Positions 10,359 through 18,578 of a DNA stretch of 18,578 nucleotides are shown in pieces. The position numbers and the translations under genes are program-made. Under the pieces are notes generated by a model that was not told the origin of the DNA, did no database searches, and was given only the letters and a program-made list of their open reading frames with translations. The stretch comes from a virus. The stretch lies in the UHGV virus genome UHGV-0126919, one strand, 5' to 3'. The number at the start of each line of letters is the position of its first letter. Position 1 is the first letter of the stretch.

Positions 10359-11780
10359 CTATATGGTTACGCCTTTACTTATAACTCTACGGCGTCTTCT
10401 ACGTATACCTGACGAGTTCTGCACATACACATTACCTCGCATTTCCTGTTCGGCAAGCCAGTTAAAATTAGGGTTCAGAATTTCCATCGCGGCAGTTGCA
10501 TAGTTACGGCAATCAAGAGGCTCGTTACGCTCGTAGACTTTCACCCACTTTTCTTTTGTCTGCCCATTTTTATATTCAAATATTTTTTTCTCTGATAATA
10601 ATCCTTTAAAGTATTCGGTATCATATCCTCTGTCAGAATCTAATGGGAAATGCATATAACCAGGACCAGGATCATGTAGTTTAATTCTTGCCATGATGGT
10701 CCCTTTACCATCATCAACCCCCAAATTAAACAACATAGCACCCACACGGTTATTATTACTTGGCTTTCCTATAAATGGTAAACCTACCCCACCACGCCCC
10801 CTGATAGAGTATATTCGCCTTGATTCTCTCGGCTTAGTAAAGCGATATACCTCTGTCGTAAAATGCCCACCAGAGTCAATACAAACGGAAGAAATCTGTA
10901 ATTTTCGACCGTCACGGAATGACCAGCTACGGAGTAAGTATTCATCAAGTTGTTTCCAGACAACATCTTGTGCGGGATCACCTGGGAATATTTTATATTC
11001 TATCCCCCATGACTCCTTACCTTTTCCCCAACCGACCAATTCACAAACTAAATACGTGTCCTGTACGTCAACACCAGCACTTAACAATAAAACATCATCT
11101 GGTAAAAACTCTTCAAACCTTATTCTGCGTTGCAACAAGTATTCAGGATCGATATCGTCTTTAGCATCCTCTTTCCATGGCTCACCCAGCTTAAGGTTAA
11201 TAAACTCCATTAATCCATTTTTATCGCGGTTTCTGGTTGCTTCCGTAAATTCTTCAACCAGCTCTGACAATGCAACCCACGGGGAGTAAAGACTGTTAAT
11301 ATGAAAACCAACAATACCTTTAACTCCAGTATGTTCAGCTATCCATACCCCCTTCGCCAACCAATCAACGTCTGGTTTACCAGATCCGCGCATAATCCCG
11401 CCGCACTCACAGCACTCATATCTGGCCGTTTCCGGTAACGCCTCACCTGAATCGCTCTTATCCCATCTGACTTGCGACCATTTCATCACCTGCATGGTGC
11501 CACAACATGGGCAAGGAACATGGTAGTAACGCTGATCGGAGAGCTTAAACCACTTGTGGATTTTGCTTGTTTCCTCCAAAACAGGAGTAGAAACAAAAAC
11601 TTTCTTACGATTATGAAAGTTGGTAGTACGCTGAATACCTAGTTTTAGTGGGTCGCCCTCCTGCGTCACACCGTAACGATCAATCTCATCAGCTAACAGT
11701 ATTCGAATTGGCCTGGATGCAAGACCTGCTGGGGAATTAGCACCAACAAGTGCTATATATCCACCAGCGTAATGCTTCAT
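10359..11780 (-). CDS. terminase large subunit (lambda gpA-like), C-terminal segment (473 aa)
   Basis: MKHYAGGYIALVGANSPAG… aligns with lambda gpA from about residue 137 (TMKRFTNGRGFWCLGG…) and continues through the …FHINSLYSPW… region (lambda …FHIWTAYSPF…). Its ATG overlaps the TGA of the N-terminal segment (ATGA). Confidence 0.85.
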   Translation of the reverse strand: MKHYAGGYIALVGANSPAGLASRPIRILLADEIDRYGVTQEGDPLKLGIQRTTNFHNRKKVFVSTPVLEETSKIHKWFKLSDQRYYHVPCPCCGTMQVMKWSQVRWDKSDSGEALPETARYECCECGGIMRGSGKPDVDWLAKGVWIAEHTGVKGIVGFHINSLYSPWVALSELVEEFTEATRNRDKNGLMEFINLKLGEPWKEDAKDDIDPEYLLQRRIRFEEFLPDDVLLLSAGVDVQDTYLVCELVGWGKGKESWGIEYKIFPGDPAQDVVWKQLDEYLLRSWSFRDGRKLQISSVCIDSGGHFTTEVYRFTKPRESRRIYSIRGRGGVGLPFIGKPSNNNRVGAMLFNLGVDDGKGTIMARIKLHDPGPGYMHFPLDSDRGYDTEYFKGLLSEKKIFEYKNGQTKEKWVKVYERNEPLDCRNYATAAMEILNPNFNWLAEQEMRGNVYVQNSSGIRRRRRRVISKGVTI

Positions 11781-12178
11781 ACGTATAGTCCTTCATGCAG
11801 CTTGTGTTTCAAACCAGGGGAATATTTGAACGTCGGATCAATACGCTCTTTTGAAAAAGCCTCAGCCGCCTCTACCGTTGGATAAATCATCAACTGAGGA
11901 GATGGCTCCTGATCTGCAAAGTAACCCATAACATTTAGCTGTAATTCGGATTTACCAATTTGCGAGCTACATTGCATCACTACTGTTTCTGTATCAGCGT
12001 CACCAATAACATCCATTGGTTCACGCAAATATGGCACTCGGCTTGTACGCCACGGCCCTGGCTCTGGAGACGTTCCCGGCGCTACATGACGATACTTATC
12101 AGCCCATTCGGAAACAGTTAGCCGTGATTTAGGGCGAAGCGCACGGAAAAAAGCGGTGCTCCATACTGTTTCGCCCAT
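11777..12178 (-). CDS. terminase large subunit (lambda gpA-like), N-terminal segment (133 aa)
   Basis: …TVSEWADKYRHVAPGTSPEPGPWRTSRVPYLREPMDVIG…VVMQCSSQIGKSELQLNVMGYFA… parallels the lambda gpA N-terminus (…TAVEWADANYYLP…VNVVKSARVGYSKMLLGVYAYFI…) including the P-loop-like segment. It ends where the homology continues in the -1 frame, so one gene is split by a frame break. Confidence 0.8.
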   Translation of the reverse strand: MGETVWSTAFFRALRPKSRLTVSEWADKYRHVAPGTSPEPGPWRTSRVPYLREPMDVIGDADTETVVMQCSSQIGKSELQLNVMGYFADQEPSPQLMIYPTVEAAEAFSKERIDPTFKYSPGLKHKLHEGLYV

Positions 12179-12735: not shown

Positions 12736-13325
12736 TACTTGCAACCATTAGCAAGATACTGAACAAATCCCTCATGCGTTTCATGCGCGTCGTGGTACTG
12801 ACGATAAACATCCAGCAACAATGCAATTTCCATATCCGTCGCGGGAATACGTTCTTTATCAATAGCCAGGTACTTAATTTGAACAACAGGGGAAGAATTA
12901 TCGTCTTCTTCCTGCGGCTGTTCATCGCTTAACATTTCGTCAAGCTCTGCATCATTAAACCCAAGCAGATCAATATCAAAATCATCATCCATTAACTCTT
13001 TGACTTCTTCGGCCAGAAGCTGCATATCCCAGCCAGCATTTAAGGCCAGCTTGTTATCTGCAATCCTGTAAGCCTTCTTCTGTTTTTCAGAAAGGTTACT
13101 CAACCGAATCGCCGGAACTTTATCCATTTCCAGAATTTCGGCTGCTGCAAGCCGCCCATGCCCCGCAATCAGTTCATTCTTTTCATCGATCAGCACAGGA
13201 TTAGTGAAACCGAACTCACGGATACTGTTCACCAACTGTTCAACTTGCTCATCTGAATGAGTCCGTGAATTTTTGGCATATCTGAGCAACTTACCGACTG
13301 GTAAATATTCGATTTTTAGAGCCAT
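12735..13325 (-). CDS. ParB-like N-terminal (ParB/Srx) domain protein, paralog A
   Basis: 196 aa; …NSRTHSDEQVEQLVNSIREFGFTNPVLIDEKNELIAGHGRLAAA…QKKAYRIADNKLALNAGWD… has the ParB-N style G-H-x-R box. Roughly half its residues match paralog B (15991..16614) by eye. Translationally coupled to the small terminase. Confidence 0.7.
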   Translation of the reverse strand: MALKIEYLPVGKLLRYAKNSRTHSDEQVEQLVNSIREFGFTNPVLIDEKNELIAGHGRLAAAEILEMDKVPAIRLSNLSEKQKKAYRIADNKLALNAGWDMQLLAEEVKELMDDDFDIDLLGFNDAELDEMLSDEQPQEEDDNSSPVVQIKYLAIDKERIPATDMEIALLLDVYRQYHDAHETHEGFVQYLANGCK

Positions 13326-13881
13326 TTTTTAACCGCCATAACACAACAGGTTAAAGAAAACTGTTTAACTTATTGATACTAAAAGAGAAAAATGACGATC
13401 TTTTTACTCATAAAAAATCACACAAACCAGCATAATTATCTGATTTTATTAAGTTTTTATAAGTAAAAAGGATCTTGCGATGGTGTTTTGGTTAAAAGAT
13501 TGGATGTATTTGCATGATTTATAACGATTTTTATCAGAACAACATCACATTGGTTAAAGATCTGCGCGTATCTTGATGATCTAAAAGAAAATTTTCCACT
13601 TTCTTCTTACCAGCACAAATACAGAAAAAATCACGTTTTCCCGATATTTTTCAATGAGATGAGTAAATTTCTTTTACCGCAACTTTTAACCTAACTTTTT
13701 TCACGTTTAGCTAGCCGAATATCGGGGTTCGAATGACCCGCATCCAACGCTTTTGGCCAGAAGGACCCAATTCTGCCGGACGATGAAACGATGCTCGTGC
13801 TCCCCCACAGACAGCCAGCGAGCGACGCTACAGAACACAGTGAATACACTCTGCATAACAACACCATCAACCACACGATGA
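13326..13881. other. 556-bp noncoding region (AT-rich left part, GC-rich right part) upstream of the packaging module; candidate cos/pac or regulatory region
   Basis: No convincing ORF. Direct repeat TTGGTTAAA(A)GAT at 13488-13500 and 13550-13561. Four GATC sites at 13397, 13471, 13559, 13578. GC-rich segment 13700-13860 with small hairpins. Confidence 0.5.
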
Positions 13882-14601
13882 TTAACGAGAGAAGGTCTTA
13901 GAAAGAATGTCATCAATCGCCTTTGTGACTTCATCAGCAAACGCATCCTCACCAGCACGCAGCGCCACGCCATGCCAATCAAGACGCTGCGAATAGTTAG
14001 GTTGCTGGATAAACGTAAGGATCAACGTAGGACGCCGCCCAACGCGCTGCCAGACGCCTGGTTGAAGCGGGTTACTTGTACCAGGTCGAACAACAAAAAA
14101 CTCCGTAGGCTTGCCCTGACGGCGATTTTGATGCGCATCTCGCTGAACTCTTAGGCCAGATAAGACCTGCTGTAATTGCCCCCGCGAAATATTCCCGTAT
14201 TTGTCCAGCTTTGCGCCGGGACCAGGAGCAAGCTGCCAGCCGTTAGGCAAATATCCACCAGCCCTTAGCGCCCCTTCTGAGCGTTTGTACTGTCGTTGGC
14301 CACCTTCGATTTGCGGAGTCAACGTTACAGGGGCTGGCGTTCCTCCCCATTCACGAGCATACACAATGGCTGTAGGATCACTCTTCTTTGCGGCCAAAAC
14401 GTAAGTAGAGTTCTGAATCCACGGCGTGGGCCTGTCAAATACCCGATTAATTTCATTCTTAATCGCAGCCTGAGAAGCCTTTGCCGTTCTGGTTGCCGCA
14501 AGCGCCATTGCGAACGGCAATTCGCGTTCTTCAAGGCGCTGGAGTTGTCGTTGAATATCCTGAGAAGAAAAATCCATCTTTATCTCAATTCTGTCAGCCA
14601 C
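13882..14601 (-). CDS. hypothetical basic protein (239 aa), no family recognised
   Basis: GTG start at 14601 preceded by a strong SD (TAGGAGG, 5-nt spacer), 16 nt downstream of the methyltransferase stop. Arg-rich throughout. Last gene of the ParB-B / methyltransferase unit before the noncoding region. Confidence 0.6.
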   Translation of the reverse strand: MADRIEIKMDFSSQDIQRQLQRLEERELPFAMALAATRTAKASQAAIKNEINRVFDRPTPWIQNSTYVLAAKKSDPTAIVYAREWGGTPAPVTLTPQIEGGQRQYKRSEGALRAGGYLPNGWQLAPGPGAKLDKYGNISRGQLQQVLSGLRVQRDAHQNRRQGKPTEFFVVRPGTSNPLQPGVWQRVGRRPTLILTFIQQPNYSQRLDWHGVALRAGEDAFADEVTKAIDDILSKTFSR

Positions 14602-14617
14602 CAGCGCCTCCTACACA

Positions 14618-15991
14618 CTACTTAATCAACGGCCGGAAAGCCGCCAGCACATCATCAGATCGTCCGATTGTTGAACCACCAGGCAACGGCAACTCAAACT
14701 CAAAACGAACAGCTTTCTCCAGACTCGCCCAACTAAGGGAATCATCGTTAATAACGTGCAAATACCAGCTCTTACAGTTGAATATTGACCGCTTAATCCT
14801 GAAACCATGTACACGACACAACTGCTTCACTTCATCATCAGAGTGAAACTTCTGGTAAAACCAGTGCCCCTTCCGGTACAACGCGGTAAAACCGTTATGA
14901 TCAATAAAATAAAGCCGGCTTTTGGAACTCGCAGCTTGTGTTTGCTTCAGGACTGTTTCCAGCTCTCCACGGCTACGGCCAGAAAAGAATATTGACCCAC
15001 CAGCTTTACACAAGCCTTTCAGAACCGTCAGAACGGACCATTCAGCCTCGACACTATCGACCGAGTTCAAAACGCTATCGCAAATCACGTAGTCGTAACG
15101 CCCTCGCGTTTTTAAGTCGTCCACCAGCGTATCAATCATCCGGTTTGTTGCGGTCCTATCCAGAGTGTTTCCAGCGCCCTTACGGCGGAAAAGCTCGAGA
15201 TCATGCAGGTTATATCCCTTTGCCCTGAGCATTCGCGCGTAGTCTCCCTGCCCCGAACCAAAATCAATTCCTCTTGGCGTCTTGGCAATGATCGGGAGGA
15301 TCAACGACTCATACAGGTTTGATTTCAGGCTGCCACCATTACGCAACCGCATAAGCTGCGCATACGTCTGGATGTATGTTGTTTTCTCCAGATGAGAATA
15401 CTCAAATACACCATAAGTTTTATTCAGATAACTTTGGTATTTTTCCTTCTCAACATCAGGGATCACAAACACCGTTAGCGGTGTGCGCGTCATTTTCGCT
15501 GCTAATGCATACTGAGCACAGTGAATAACCTCACCAGACTGAGTAGCAACACAACCACCCCACGGACCATACTTGATAACCAGTTCCGCTATGTTCTTTC
15601 GAACATATGCCATTTTCGCGCGCATATTGCCTGAGATCTGGCTTGCCGATACCTGAACAAAACCATGCTTATCTTCCAGACCGGACACCCTGCAACGCTC
15701 ATCTCCGCTATCAAAATCCGTTCCGTTATGCAGTTGGTTAAACCGTACTTCGTCGTATACCGTCGTTTCACAGGGCAACACATACACCGCAGCACGCGTT
15801 ATTCCCAACTTACGTAGCGCCTTCGTCCTTTGGTGTCCCGCCACCAGCAAATCGCCGCGCACTATCAATGGCTTCACAAGCCCCAGCTCCCTGACGCTTT
15901 CCGCCAGCCTCGCAAGATCATCCTCACCGATAAAACGCGGGTTATATTCCGCGCCGCGTAGGTGCGTTATGTCGTAATTGAGGTGAAGCAT
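14618..15991 (-). CDS. ParB-like N-terminal domain fused to a class I SAM-dependent methyltransferase domain
   Basis: N-terminus …YNPRFIGEDDLARLAESVRELGLVKPLIVRGDLLVAGHQRTKAL… is ParB-N-like. C-terminal half has Rossmann methyltransferase motifs in class I order: motif I GIDFGSGQGDY, acidic post-I (…YNLHDLELF), motif II YDYVICDSVL, motif III LCKAGGSIFFS. No (D/N/S)PP(Y/F/W) motif seen by eye. Likely start is ATG at 15991 (TGATG overlap with the ParB-B stop, SD GGAGG 7 nt upstream); the track uses GTG at 15997. Confidence 0.75.
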   Translation of the reverse strand: MLHLNYDITHLRGAEYNPRFIGEDDLARLAESVRELGLVKPLIVRGDLLVAGHQRTKALRKLGITRAAVYVLPCETTVYDEVRFNQLHNGTDFDSGDERCRVSGLEDKHGFVQVSASQISGNMRAKMAYVRKNIAELVIKYGPWGGCVATQSGEVIHCAQYALAAKMTRTPLTVFVIPDVEKEKYQSYLNKTYGVFEYSHLEKTTYIQTYAQLMRLRNGGSLKSNLYESLILPIIAKTPRGIDFGSGQGDYARMLRAKGYNLHDLELFRRKGAGNTLDRTATNRMIDTLVDDLKTRGRYDYVICDSVLNSVDSVEAEWSVLTVLKGLCKAGGSIFFSGRSRGELETVLKQTQAASSKSRLYFIDHNGFTALYRKGHWFYQKFHSDDEVKQLCRVHGFRIKRSIFNCKSWYLHVINDDSLSWASLEKAVRFEFELPLPGGSTIGRSDDVLAAFRPLIK

Positions 15992-16614
15992 CAGCACACC
16001 TCCCCAGCCAGCAATGCGGATACAAATCCGATATAGCTGCCATTATCATCAACATAACGAGACACCGCGCAGTCAAAACGATCCGCTTCCTCATCCGTTG
16101 CCGGGATTTTATGACCTCCAAATGACAGGTACTGAACTTTTACGCCTGATTTGGCCTCATCCTTCTCAAATGGGATATCCATACCCTCTGTGTCATCGTA
16201 GACCGCCGCACTCAATAAGTTATCCAGTTCGCGCTGAGTAAAACCAATTGAGTCCAGAGAAAAATCATCGGCCGCAAGATCTGCAAGCTCCGCGCTTAAC
16301 AACTCTTCATCCCAACCAGCATTCAGCGGAATACGGTTGTCGGCCAGACGATATGCCTTCTTCTGATTCTCCGTTAGCCCAGCCAGAACAATGCAGGGAA
16401 CATCATCCATCCCCAACTGAGTGGCCGCAGCAATTCGACCATGACCAGCAATTACAACGTTGTTCTCGTCTATCAGGATCGGATTAGTCCATCCGTACTC
16501 CTGTATGCTGGCAACAATCTGATCTACCTGCTCCACGGAGTGTGTGCGAGCGTTCTTTTCATAACCAATCAACACAGAAAGTGGTAAAGAAACCACATTA
16601 AGTTGTTTTGTCAT
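15991..16614 (-). CDS. ParB-like N-terminal (ParB/Srx) domain protein, paralog B
   Basis: 207 aa; …NARTHSVEQVDQIVASIQEYGWTNPILIDENNVVIAGHGRIAAA…QKKAYRLADNRIPLNAGWD… is clearly paralogous to 12735..13325. Translationally coupled to the methyltransferase fusion. Confidence 0.7.
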   Translation of the reverse strand: MTKQLNVVSLPLSVLIGYEKNARTHSVEQVDQIVASIQEYGWTNPILIDENNVVIAGHGRIAAATQLGMDDVPCIVLAGLTENQKKAYRLADNRIPLNAGWDEELLSAELADLAADDFSLDSIGFTQRELDNLLSAAVYDDTEGMDIPFEKDEAKSGVKVQYLSFGGHKIPATDEEADRFDCAVSRYVDDNGSYIGFVSALLAGEVC

Positions 16615-16742
16615 GCCGTTTATCCGCTAAAATCCCCTCGCTTGTGCAAGCAAGTGGGCCTCGGTTTGTATCCACGGCACCCTGTGGGTATGAATGACTG
16701 TCGTCAGGTCGCAACTGACGGCGGTCGCCCACCTTCCAGTAA

Positions 16743-16787
16743 TAAAAAAGCCACCAGCATTAACTCCACAATGAGCTGGAGTTAATG
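16743..16787 (-). terminator. hairpin (11-bp perfect inverted repeat) plus U-run; possible weak terminator or regulatory hairpin
   Basis: Inverted repeat CATTAACTCCA / TGGAGTTAATG (16758-16768 and 16777-16787, 8-nt spacer). On the minus-strand transcript it is followed by GCUGGUGGC and a U6 run (plus-strand A-run 16743-16749). The 8-9 nt gap between stem and U-run makes terminator function uncertain. Confidence 0.3.
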
Positions 16788-16848
16788 AGGCAGCTTTGGT
16801 TTGCGCATTATCGCAGCCCCTGATAAGCACAAGAGCTGCTGTAATGCG

Positions 16849-17259
16849 TTACTCTGGTATCAAACAGATGTGGCCGTTATTTACCTCAATACGGGAATAT
16901 TCCGGCTTACCATCCACGATTCCGGTAATGACAAGTTCGCCATCAGGCGACCATTCTTCTTTGTCGTCTTCAAGTACCGCGCCTTCTGGCAAATCAATAC
17001 AGGCAAAAACAGGGCAGCCAGGATGACGTTTATCCTCCATCGCAATCAGCATCGACTCACCGAACCACTCTGTGGTAGCACGGCCATCAGCCGCCTGATA
17101 GTGAATCAGATACTGGTTTTCGCCATTTGCATACTGAGCACGGGCTTTAACTTCTCCCCATTCGTCACTGATACGCATTGTTACCAGTTGGGATAATTCA
17201 AACTTAAACGGAACAGCATCTGCACCAATGGCAATCGGTTTATCTTCTTTCTTTTCCAT
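16849..17259 (-). CDS. hypothetical protein (136 aa; track ORF extends to 17328)
   Basis: Internal ATG at 17259 has a good SD (AGGTGA, 5-nt spacer) and lies just downstream of the 17271-17300 terminator; the track's upstream extension would read through that hairpin. Acidic soluble protein, no family recognised. Confidence 0.5.
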   Translation of the reverse strand: MEKKEDKPIAIGADAVPFKFELSQLVTMRISDEWGEVKARAQYANGENQYLIHYQAADGRATTEWFGESMLIAMEDKRHPGCPVFACIDLPEGAVLEDDKEEWSPDGELVITGIVDGKPEYSRIEVNNGHICLIPE

Positions 17260-17270
17260 AACATCACCTG

Positions 17271-17300
17271 AAAATAAAAAGCCCCGCGACACCGCGAGGC
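17271..17300 (-). terminator. rho-independent terminator (minus strand)
   Basis: Minus-strand RNA: GCCUCGCG-GUGU-CGCGGGGC (8-bp GC-rich stem with one G-U pair, 4-nt loop) followed directly by UUUUUAUUUU. Lies 9 nt downstream of the 50-aa gene stop. Confidence 0.65.
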
Positions 17301-17308
17301 TGTAAGAG

Positions 17309-17461
17309 TTACTTTCGATAGAAATCAAGGCGCAATTGCTCCCGCTTACGCCGAAAAGCTCTCTGCGCCACTAAGATGCGCCACAGGACACCAGCGATAA
17401 CCACCAGCGAGATACAAAAACACACGGCCACAACCATCAGAAAAATGCCAACACCATTCAT
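17309..17461 (-). CDS. small single-pass membrane protein (50 aa), not in the ORF track
   Basis: ATG at 17461 overlaps the upstream TGA (ATGA). Translation MNGVGIFLMVVAVCFCISLVVIAGVLWRILVAQRAFRRKREQLRLDFYRK: hydrophobic N-terminal helix and strongly basic C-terminus. Followed by the 17271-17300 terminator. Below the track's 60-aa cut-off. Confidence 0.5.
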   Translation of the reverse strand: MNGVGIFLMVVAVCFCISLVVIAGVLWRILVAQRAFRRKREQLRLDFYRK

Positions 17462-17664
17462 GAAACTATCCATTCTTCAATGAATATCTCCAGTAATATC
17501 AAGAGATACGCCGTTCCCAGCGCGGTTCCTACCGATATAGCTAAGACAAACCTCAAAGATAACGAGGTGTCCTTCGCTTTTCTCCAGACGTAAGCGCCAG
17601 CCAGAAATACCAACAAATCTCTTATTGGAAGCGGAAACCAGAACAAATCACTCGGCAAGTCCAC
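17458..17664 (-). CDS. small two-transmembrane protein (69 aa from GTG; holin-like topology)
   Basis: The track's TTG start at 17715 lacks an RBS and overlaps the upstream gene by 49 nt. GTG at 17664 has SD AAGGA with a 7-nt spacer and sits right after the upstream stop (17667-17669). Two hydrophobic segments (…LFWFPLPIRDLLVFLAGAYVW… and …FVLAISVGTALGTAYLLILLEIFI…). Confidence 0.45.
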   Translation of the reverse strand: MDLPSDLFWFPLPIRDLLVFLAGAYVWRKAKDTSLSLRFVLAISVGTALGTAYLLILLEIFIEEWIVS

Positions 17665-17666
17665 GG

Positions 17667-18122
17667 TTATATCCTTCCATTCATTTTTATCGGGTGACCA
17701 GATAGCCTTAGGCAATTGAGCTGTAAAGCTCCTGTATCAACTAAATGATCAACTAACATGATTAGAGATTCATATTCAGCCAGATAGCTAACCTGACGCA
17801 TTCGACCGCCGTTGTTCTCCAGAATGTCAGCCACCTTTGCAGCCAACTCGCTTAGACAGAAGAACTTATTCCCATATATCGTTTTATACTCGCGCTTCTG
17901 GCATTCTTCGGCTTGCGGCTGGTTATCGAGAGCTATCAGCGACCGATGGCTATCAATGAAGTCCACAATCTCATTCAGGCATTCTTTAGCTGCCTCATCG
18001 TGACTTTTTCCGTATGCTTCACGGAGGACTTTCATCCTCATCATTGCTCCGTCACATATAGTCGAAAGCGCGTAAAGCACATCACTAACCGCCATTTCTT
18101 TTTTGGTGCTTGTCGAAGGCAT
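17667..18122 (-). CDS. hypothetical protein (151 aa), first gene after the upstream terminator
   Basis: ATG at 18122 with SD AAGGAG about 9 nt upstream; the 18148-18173 terminator lies just upstream of that RBS. Soluble, no family recognised. Confidence 0.5.
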   Translation of the reverse strand: MPSTSTKKEMAVSDVLYALSTICDGAMMRMKVLREAYGKSHDEAAKECLNEIVDFIDSHRSLIALDNQPQAEECQKREYKTIYGNKFFCLSELAAKVADILENNGGRMRQVSYLAEYESLIMLVDHLVDTGALQLNCLRLSGHPIKMNGRI

Positions 18123-18147
18123 CCCATGTTCTCCTTTGTCTGGATGT

Positions 18148-18173
18148 AAAAAAGCCCCGGCAATTGCCGAGGC
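18148..18173 (-). terminator. rho-independent terminator (minus strand)
   Basis: Minus-strand RNA: GCCUCGGC-AAUU-GCCGGGGC (8-bp GC-rich stem with one G-U pair, 4-nt loop) followed directly by UUUUUU. Lies downstream of the 65-aa gene and about 10 nt upstream of the RBS of the 151-aa gene. Confidence 0.7.
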
Positions 18174-18196
18174 TCGTTGTTCGTTATCGTTACGGT

Positions 18197-18394
18197 TTAA
18201 TGCTCGCGTCGTCCGGCGACAACTTCGGATTTGTATTTCAGGTCGCCCAGCAAGAATTGCAGTTTAAGCATCTTTGCCGCCGTGTAGTTCCCTGATTCCA
18301 CAACCTCTTTCATGAGGTCATAAACGGCCGCTACATCATCAGCCAGGAACTCTTTGCGTTGCTGCTCAGTCGCACGTTTGAAGGAAATACGCAT
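18197..18394 (-). CDS. hypothetical small protein (65 aa)
   Basis: ATG at 18394 overlaps the TGA of the upstream partial ORF (TGATG), with SD AGGAG about 10 nt upstream. No family recognised. Confidence 0.4.
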   Translation of the reverse strand: MRISFKRATEQQRKEFLADDVAAVYDLMKEVVESGNYTAAKMLKLQFLLGDLKYKSEVVAGRREH

Positions 18395-18578
18395 CACTCA
18401 TCATCTCCTGCCGCACATACAACCTCACAAAAAAAATCAGCAGAATGTTTCTCCTTGAACGAATGACGCTCAAAACCGCACTCAATATCAGGCGCAAAAA
18501 CATCCACCACATACGGTCTTTCAGAATGTTTGTTTTCCCAACGATAAACCGTAGTGACGTTGAAATGTTTTAACGCTT
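18394..18578 (-). CDS. partial CDS, C-terminal end of a gene starting beyond the window
   Basis: Minus-strand frame open for 60 codons from the window edge to TGA at 18394-18396 (…VYRWENKHSERPYVVDVFAPDIECGFERHSFKEKHSADFFCEVVCAAGDDE). Absent from the track because its start is outside the window. Function unknown. Confidence 0.35.
   Translation of the reverse strand, partial: ALKHFNVTTVYRWENKHSERPYVVDVFAPDIECGFERHSFKEKHSADFFCEVVCAAGDDE

Follow-up and report, generated by a model that had tools for sequence, protein, structure and literature searches.

Two hairpins, here called T1 and T2, lie among small accessory genes upstream of a ParB gene in an 18,578-nt stretch of the virus genome UHGV-0126919 (the window), and we asked what they contribute to transcription of the phage genes behind them. 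The window is part of a 47–49 kb Escherichia coli phage-plasmid. Of 5,426 complete E. coli genomes, 69 contain circular plasmids of this size that match the 1.8-kb region, as well as the whole window, at 97–99% identity; further matches are three records of Yersinia phages (vB_YpM_39, 41 and 44) and two of E. coli prophages. The E. coli reference strain ATCC 25922, with the 48.5-kb relative NZ_CP009073.1, and human blood and cerebrospinal fluid isolates are among the carriers.

NZ_CP173594.1 (locus L002), at 98% identity the closest of the complete relatives used, served as the reference; window position 18578 corresponds to L002 position 24330. The genes of this element include those for RepA, ParA and an XRE-type repressor, together with a lambda-like head module and a P2-like tail module. 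Its phage genes lie nearly all on one strand, and every gene in the window is on the minus strand, referred to below as the coding strand. For comparison between genera we used two Salmonella phage-plasmids, NZ_LN890526.1 (serovar Weltevreden) and CP053324.1 (subsp. salamae), of which the ParB region is ~76% identical to the window and the accessory genes could not be aligned to it by blastn.

Along the coding strand, the early genes are followed by a 560-nt gap, two holin genes, an endolysin, a spanin, tRNA-Ile, an MT-A70 gene and two genes for proteins of 89 and 66 amino acids (aa). Then come T1, the 151-aa gene, two small membrane proteins of 68 and 54 aa, T2, the 136-aa gene, and a third terminator, T3, with a structured leader ahead of ParB (Table 1). 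ParB is succeeded by a ParB-methyltransferase gene, a 239-aa gene, a 557-nt gap, a ParB/Srx gene, TerS, TerL and the head and tail genes. The layout is lambda-like and confined to one strand, with a late block, a terminator, lysis genes, cos, terminase, head and tail in succession. The initial annotation of the window had placed T1 in front of the first gene of the long gene array, which does not agree with this order: the co-directional array starts ~9 kb upstream, beyond the window.

Table 1. Terminators, leader and genes around T1 and T2, in window coordinates
Feature	Position	Strand	Description
66-aa gene	18197..18397	minus	phrog_6621, function unknown; last gene of the 89-aa and 66-aa unit ending at T1
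T1 intrinsic terminator	18148..18175	minus	10-bp stem with one G·U pair, AAUU loop, U6
151-aa gene	17667..18122	minus	ATG at 18122; ORFan restricted to the phage-plasmid family
68-aa gene	17458..17664	minus	probable small membrane protein; GTG start after GGAAGGA, two hydrophobic segments
54-aa gene	17309..17473	minus	small membrane protein; one hydrophobic segment, basic tail; homologue in a Salmonella relative
T2 intrinsic terminator	17271..17301	minus	9-bp stem with one G·U pair, GUGU loop, U5AU4
136-aa gene	16849..17259	minus	ATG at 17259; phrog_1935, function unknown
T3 intrinsic terminator	16741..16797	minus	stem of ~20 bp, U6AUU; between the 136-aa gene and ParB
Structured leader	16612..16740	minus	~130 nt, conserved, upstream of ParB
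ParB/Srx-like gene	15991..16614	minus	first gene past the terminator series

Form and conservation of T1 and T2

The stem of T1 (18175–18152) reads GAGCCUCGGC-AAUU-GCCGGGGCUU and is followed by U6; that of T2 (17301–17280) reads AGCCUCGCG-GUGU-CGCGGGGCU, followed by U5AU4. Their predicted folding energies are −18.8 kcal/mol (z = −4.9) and −16.8 kcal/mol (z = −4.75), respectively, and for either hairpin none of 200 shuffled sequences folded equally well. In a simple terminator scan they ranked first and second of 20 terminator-like matches in the window. T1 begins 21 nt past the 66-aa gene's stop codon; the distance from the end of its U-tract to the AAGGAG ribosome-binding site (RBS) of the 151-aa gene is 11 nt. 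T2 begins 7 nt past the stop codon of the 54-aa gene and lies ~10 nt ahead of the RBS of the 136-aa gene. On the plus strand, the G·U pair of each hairpin turns into an A·C mismatch and the U-tract is lost, so that the signals work on just one strand. Judged by sequence, T1 and T2 are genuine Rho-independent terminators, displaying every feature of that class that can be read from the letters. The initial annotation had described both hairpins, each with one G·U pair and a 4-nt loop, one ~10 nt before the RBS of the 151-aa gene and the other between the small membrane-protein genes and the 136-aa gene, and these descriptions were confirmed.

The same annotation had called them twin terminators. 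The pattern AGCCTCG-N4-12-CGGGGCTTTT indeed occurs twice in the window, against 0.00 expected. An exact-pattern scan of IMG/VR, however, found the stem base AGCCUCG...CGGGGCU, wobble included, in at least 120 unrelated viral contigs representing at least 93 distinct sequences, and the flanks of T1 and T2 are dissimilar by eye. We therefore rejected the idea of a duplicated pair or a family-specific motif, as the stem form is generic in phages; the likeness is best read as a common terminator form and not as evidence of duplication. To speak of twins is also an overstatement in that T3 follows 450 nt further on.

T1 is the more constant of the two. Its hairpin is invariant in ~18 E. coli-group loci, and its stem is identical in both Salmonella phage-plasmids. 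It sits within a block of 64–76 nt (window 18173–18101) that is 80–84% identical to Salmonella, both neighbouring genes being unalignable, and that extends over the RBS and first codons of the 151-aa homologue. As the stem never varies, it gives no covariation evidence. The T2 hairpin is invariant within the E. coli group wherever it is present. Searches of Rfam at T1, T2, T3 and the leader gave no match apart from a sub-threshold hit to isrJ (E = 0.79), which reflects mere terminator similarity.

In the relatives, beyond the end of the window, a sigma-70-like promoter (TTTACA-17-TATGGT) precedes the 89-aa gene, ~600 nt upstream of T1, and is kept in Salmonella. T1 is thus at least the terminator of the 89/66-aa unit. 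The Salmonella relatives carry an additional terminator, Ta, directly after the 66-aa gene, and then ~250 nt of non-coding DNA up to T1 (L091 3733–4030); this segment could encode a small RNA with T1 as its terminator. A sub-threshold rydB-like match (E = 0.0037) was seen at L091 2473–2536.

A terminator series from the lysis genes to ParB

T1 and T2 belong to a longer series. Four terminators, T0, T1, T2 and T3, occur at equal positions in the E. coli and the two Salmonella phage-plasmids, the latter with Ta in addition, and each fills a short spacer between a stop codon and the following RBS. Between Salmonella and E. coli the stems of T0, T2 and T3 have changed and that of T1 is the same.

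T0, the strongest of the series, lies outside the window in the region L002 27295–27400 (minus strand), ~3.4 kb upstream of T1. It consists of an 11-bp stem followed by U9 and is placed in the 560-nt gap after the early genes, ~20 nt before the start of the first holin gene. A block of 57 nt, invariant across E. coli and Salmonella (CCTTGTTTTAkGTGGTAACTkrGTGTAGTGTTTCATTTAACGTAGTAAAACTGCGTT) and located at ~27385 in L002, precedes T0 by 60–80 nt. This block holds a possible promoter, TTGTTT-17-TAGTGT, and a conserved 11-bp hairpin stands after that promoter and before T0; block and hairpin are likely a late promoter and its leader. A second −10-like hexamer, TAACGT, just past the putative −10 may resemble the sigma-dependent pause element of lambda pR'. 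Immediately upstream of the block is a gene for a protein of 59–66 aa (phrog_9594) that is confined to the phage-plasmid family; a homologue search with the 59-aa protein matched only members of this family. We also considered an operator half-site common to the late block and the early palindrome, but dropped this candidate as unconvincing (6 matches, 2.3 expected).

The Yersinia phage records share the T0 region at 96–97% identity, so T0 is present, with too little space after it for a promoter, in phages that have to lyse their host cells. Because the essential holin gene follows directly and leaves no such room, we strongly infer that T0, at least, must be read through in the lytic cycle. 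By its position, T0 and not T1 is the counterpart of lambda tR'. The initial annotation had likened T1 to tR', which the surroundings of T1 contradict: within ~200 nt upstream of T1, or of T2, there is no promoter-like site, and T1 follows the 89/66-aa unit.

At the other end of the series, T3 was missed by the simple scan and was detected by a search for hairpins with U-tracts, in which it appeared stronger than T1 and T2 (ΔG −27.5, z −6.05). Its stem carries compensatory changes, from AUUAACUCCA/UGGAGUUAAU in the window to ACCAAUUCAG/CUGGUUGGU in the Salmonella relatives. The whole spacer between the 136-aa gene and ParB (window 16605–16855) has a folding z-score of −4.69 and is 85% identical to Salmonella, compared with ~76% for spacer and ParB jointly; compensatory changes affect 9 of the 72 predicted pairs across T3 and the leader. 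In the final leader helix, GUGCCG pairs with CGGCAU and overlaps the AUG of ParB, which suggests that the leader controls translation or acts as a cis-acting RNA. A scan of genome contigs with the ParB protein itself returned only unrelated loci of Myxococcota, Sphingomonas and Bacteroidota.

A sigma-70 scan of the coding strand from 18578 to 16600 found no promoter, and a relaxed scan from T1 to ParB gave a single candidate, matching at 8 of 12 positions and located inside a gene. An independent promoter for the downstream genes, which the initial annotation had named as an objection to its own proposal, is thus not predicted in sigma-70-like form on the coding strand from T1 to ParB. On the plus strand, two promoter-like sites matching at 9 of 12 positions (17853–17882 and 17168–17197) are aimed at T1 and T2, respectively. 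They are probably meaningless, because promoter-like sites in the window are fewer than expected by chance.

Beyond ParB, the path continues across the presumed packaging site. The Yersinia phage records start at window position 13738 or 13726, inside the 557-nt gap at 13325–13882, and for this reason cos probably sits in that gap. The segment at which the records start is conserved in Salmonella (GGGTCATTCGAACCCCG...). The gap is non-coding, with a GC content down to 0.28, and the AT-rich DNA after the presumed cos contains repeated TTTTAACC and GATC-containing motifs.

The genes between T1 and T3 are variable. The 151-aa gene has exchanged its C-terminal half in many relatives, so that the product is a 99-aa protein, with breakpoints at 17941 and 17657; a homologue search with the 151-aa protein matched only members of the phage-plasmid family. 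The 68-aa open reading frame (ORF), although unannotated in RefSeq, has a homologous ORF in a Salmonella relative. In vB_YpM_41 and several plasmids, a terminator-free remnant of a tail-fibre-assembly gene, 373 nt long, occupies the place of the segment 17331–17239, which comprises T2 and the opening codons of the 136-aa gene; the 136-aa gene is fused to this remnant. The plasmid pP136-7 has, instead of T2 and the entire 136-aa gene, a DUF2513 cassette with its own terminator and an AT-rich upstream stretch, promoter-like by eye. Among the loci compared, L001, L083 and L088 have terminator-free sequence in place of T2, and L093 has the DUF2513 cassette. Since the breakpoints lie around T2 (17331–17334 and 17239 or 16847), T2 moves with its cassette.

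Homologues of the 136-aa protein (70–85% identical; loci L006–L082) occur in lambdoid prophages of phiP27-like or phage 21-like type, between the lysis cassette and cos/terS, and a hairpin stands directly ahead of their RBS. One group of these homologues has a strong terminator there (AGCCCCGC-AAAU-GCGGGGCU, then U6); most have a degenerate hairpin that lacks a U-tract.

Such slots recall the morons of lambdoid phages, a definition that the cassettes behind T1 and T2 appear to fit partly. The 151-aa and 136-aa slots have content that is replaced, or present or absent, in syntenic relatives, and a terminator lies downstream of each cassette. No sigma-70-like promoter precedes the 151-aa or the 136-aa gene, and the composition is not atypical (GC 0.44–0.47 in the cassette, 0.47–0.50 in the neighbouring sequence). 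Only the DUF2513 variant and the 89/66-aa unit show the full moron layout of promoter and terminator.

Proposed antitermination and its alternatives

With moderate confidence, we propose that T1 and T2 are internal terminators of a conserved series within the single late transcription path and that they are overridden by processive antitermination in lytic growth. Dependence on read-through is the most economical model because the terminators precede RBSs, no sigma-70-like promoter is predicted after them and the layout is lambda-like. In the plasmid-prophage state, T0 to T3 would stop transcripts that arise at constitutive promoters further upstream, for instance that of the tRNA and the sigma-70-like one ahead of the 89-aa gene. 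The accessory cassettes would thereby stay silent, as would the structural genes and the genes for ParB and the methyltransferase. During lytic growth, RNA polymerase starting from the conserved block upstream of T0, or from an early promoter, would be made terminator-resistant by a putative factor. The resistant polymerase would then cross T0, T1, T2, T3 and cos, much as Q-modified polymerase does in lambda, and T1 and T2 would act as operon-embedded terminators bracketing exchangeable accessory cassettes.

The initial annotation had already suggested that everything downstream is expressed under antitermination control. Part of this proposal stands, namely that co-directional terminators precede RBSs in a lambda-like layout with no sigma-70 promoter behind them. 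Several results weigh against it. The Q-like antiterminator expected upstream of the window was not found: searches of Pfam, PHROGs and NCBIfam with the early and other scanned non-structural genes of L002 revealed no Q, N or other antiterminator family, and PDB sequence searches with the 230-, 134- and 59-aa proteins gave no relative of Q or N. A boxA search produced one match, in an irrelevant place and at chance level. T2 is absent from the deposited phage isolates vB_YpM_41 and 44 and from several plasmids, though present in vB_YpM_39; it is therefore dispensable in natural variants and not an obligatory gate. The Salmonella relatives have a terminator at the T2 position with another stem (AGCCCGC/GCGGGUU), and it is weak (z = −1.1). 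Finally, phage-specific activator-dependent promoters would escape a sigma-70 scan and could lie after T3 or in the AT-rich region behind cos. L002 may nevertheless encode a divergent or novel antitermination factor, for which the phrog_9594 gene, a 93-aa winged-helix gene and the early operon as a whole are candidate sources. A series of four or five strong terminators, one of them just before the holin gene, combined with the lack of a recognisable Q or N, could also mean that the antitermination system is of an undescribed kind, with the 57-nt block and its 11-bp hairpin and the phrog_9594 protein as candidate components and T1–T3 as downstream checkpoints; this we consider rather unlikely. 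A literature search returned nothing relevant on this phage-plasmid family, its regulation or its transcription, and no transcript data.

The alternative that survives best, possible if on the unlikely side, is that the terminators are plain unit boundaries or insulators and that no antitermination takes place. T1 would end the 89/66-aa unit, T2 and T3 would end the next cassettes, and expression of the 151-aa and 136-aa cassettes would depend solely on leak-through or on promoters that escaped recognition; ParB and the genes for packaging and structure would have their own activator-dependent late promoter or promoters after T3 or cos. The promoter upstream of the 89-aa gene, conserved ~600 nt ahead of T1, is what such a boundary calls for, and the T2 slot of the DUF2513 variant holds a classic moron consisting of promoter, gene and terminator. 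The varying cassette content and the failure to find an antiterminator point the same way, and both the conserved structured leader and the AT-rich region behind cos could conceal promoters that are not of the sigma-70 type. The position of T0, however, requires that one or more terminators be read through, as it stands directly ahead of the essential holin with no promoter room. Moreover, no promoter-like site follows T1, T2 or T3, the GC content of the T1–T2 cassette is not foreign, and in lambdoid prophages the hairpin is found at the 5' side of the 136-aa gene, not at its 3' side.

It is improbable that the sites are partial terminators or stabilising 3' hairpins that tune expression within one polycistronic transcript in an unregulated manner, by attenuation or protection of messenger RNA ends. 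Their location in intercistronic spacers directly before RBSs would suit this role, as would the loss of T2 without killing the phage and the weakness of its Salmonella counterpart. T0, T1 and T3, in contrast, are very strong, with GC-rich stems of 10–20 bp and tracts of U6 to U9, and a succession of three or four such sites would let very little transcription through to the ~30 kb of essential late genes. A function mainly at the DNA level, with the hairpins as linkers for cassette exchange by homologous recombination or as protein-binding palindromes, is very improbable and, for recombination anchors, was rejected: the T1 block is 80–84% identical between genera with both flanking genes unalignable, and cassettes vary on either side, but the breakpoints miss the hairpins (17941 and 17657 fall inside the 151-aa gene; the others lie around T2), the G·U pairs and U-tracts are meaningful only as RNA of one strand, and T0, T2 and T3 retain structure, not sequence.

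Compared with known systems, the proposed antitermination of the T0–T3 series would follow a familiar plan. Q antitermination turns on the late operons of lambdoid phages, and these operons accommodate morons, which are inserts with expression of their own (PMC2629481). The phage-plasmid resembles the lambda late operon (pR'-qut-tR', Q) in its long co-directional array, in a terminator, T0, placed before the lysis cassette and just after a promoter-like block, in transcription across cos, and in having further terminators inside the array (PMC2629481). It differs in that it has no match to any of the three Pfam Q families and no recognisable qut, and in being a RepA/ParA plasmid prophage with a P2-like tail and a C4/isrK-type immunity RNA. 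Unlike tR', T1 and T2 are not promoter-proximal; they lie 3.4 and 4.3 kb downstream of the tR'-like site. Behind T1 are an ORFan and two small membrane proteins, whereas the lysis genes are upstream, behind T0.

A further parallel is with terminators that are embedded in operons. T1 and T2 stand between small variable accessory genes in an operon that needs end-to-end transcription. In the same way, tR2–tR4 of the lambda nin region lie inside an antiterminated operon, and comparative genomics of HK97 and HK022 introduced the concept of moron terminators within lambdoid late operons. The 151-aa and 136-aa genes differ from morons in having a terminator in front of them and no detected promoter of their own. 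RNA-based processive antitermination, as by HK022 put or in conAn (PMC8191782), would explain read-through of several terminators without Q or N; this is an analogy only. The conserved 11-bp hairpin between the putative late promoter and T0 is a point of likeness to put and conAn, and the difference is that the phage-plasmid has no sequence or Rfam match to them.

The principle of override would thus be ordinary lambda-style biology, and the only potentially new element is the mechanism of read-through. A chain of terminators in the sole transcription path to ~30 kb of late genes nevertheless provides a concrete, testable regulatory map. It would place the lytic switch at T0 and the conserved block and would define the gated cassettes as the 151-aa gene with the membrane proteins, the 136-aa gene, and the ParB and methyltransferase genes. 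It also implies an antitermination factor that is missing from current family libraries; should this factor prove to be nothing unusual, such as a divergent Q, the result would amount to routine annotation.

Other features of the phage-plasmid

The large terminase gene is split in the window at ~11777–11790 into ORFs of 133 and 473 aa, whereas it is an intact 618-aa gene in L002. The split results from 37 nt that are missing from the window relative to L002 and shift the reading frame; the window may derive from a defective copy of the element or contain an assembly error.

In L002, positions 36504–37337 gave Rfam matches at gathering score to ryfA, isrK and C4 antisense RNA, just upstream of genes of the ORF6N/Rha anti-repressor type. 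This points to an immunity RNA of the P1/P7-like or Gifsy-1-like kind in the phage-plasmid.

On either side of the tRNA/MT-A70 module lies one of two related AT-rich elements (TATAATTATATAAA...-type), at ~25630–25670 and 24495–24530 in L002 and at 1430–1475 and 3115–3150 in L091. Both are conserved in E. coli and Salmonella; they may be promoters, IHF sites or boundaries of the module.

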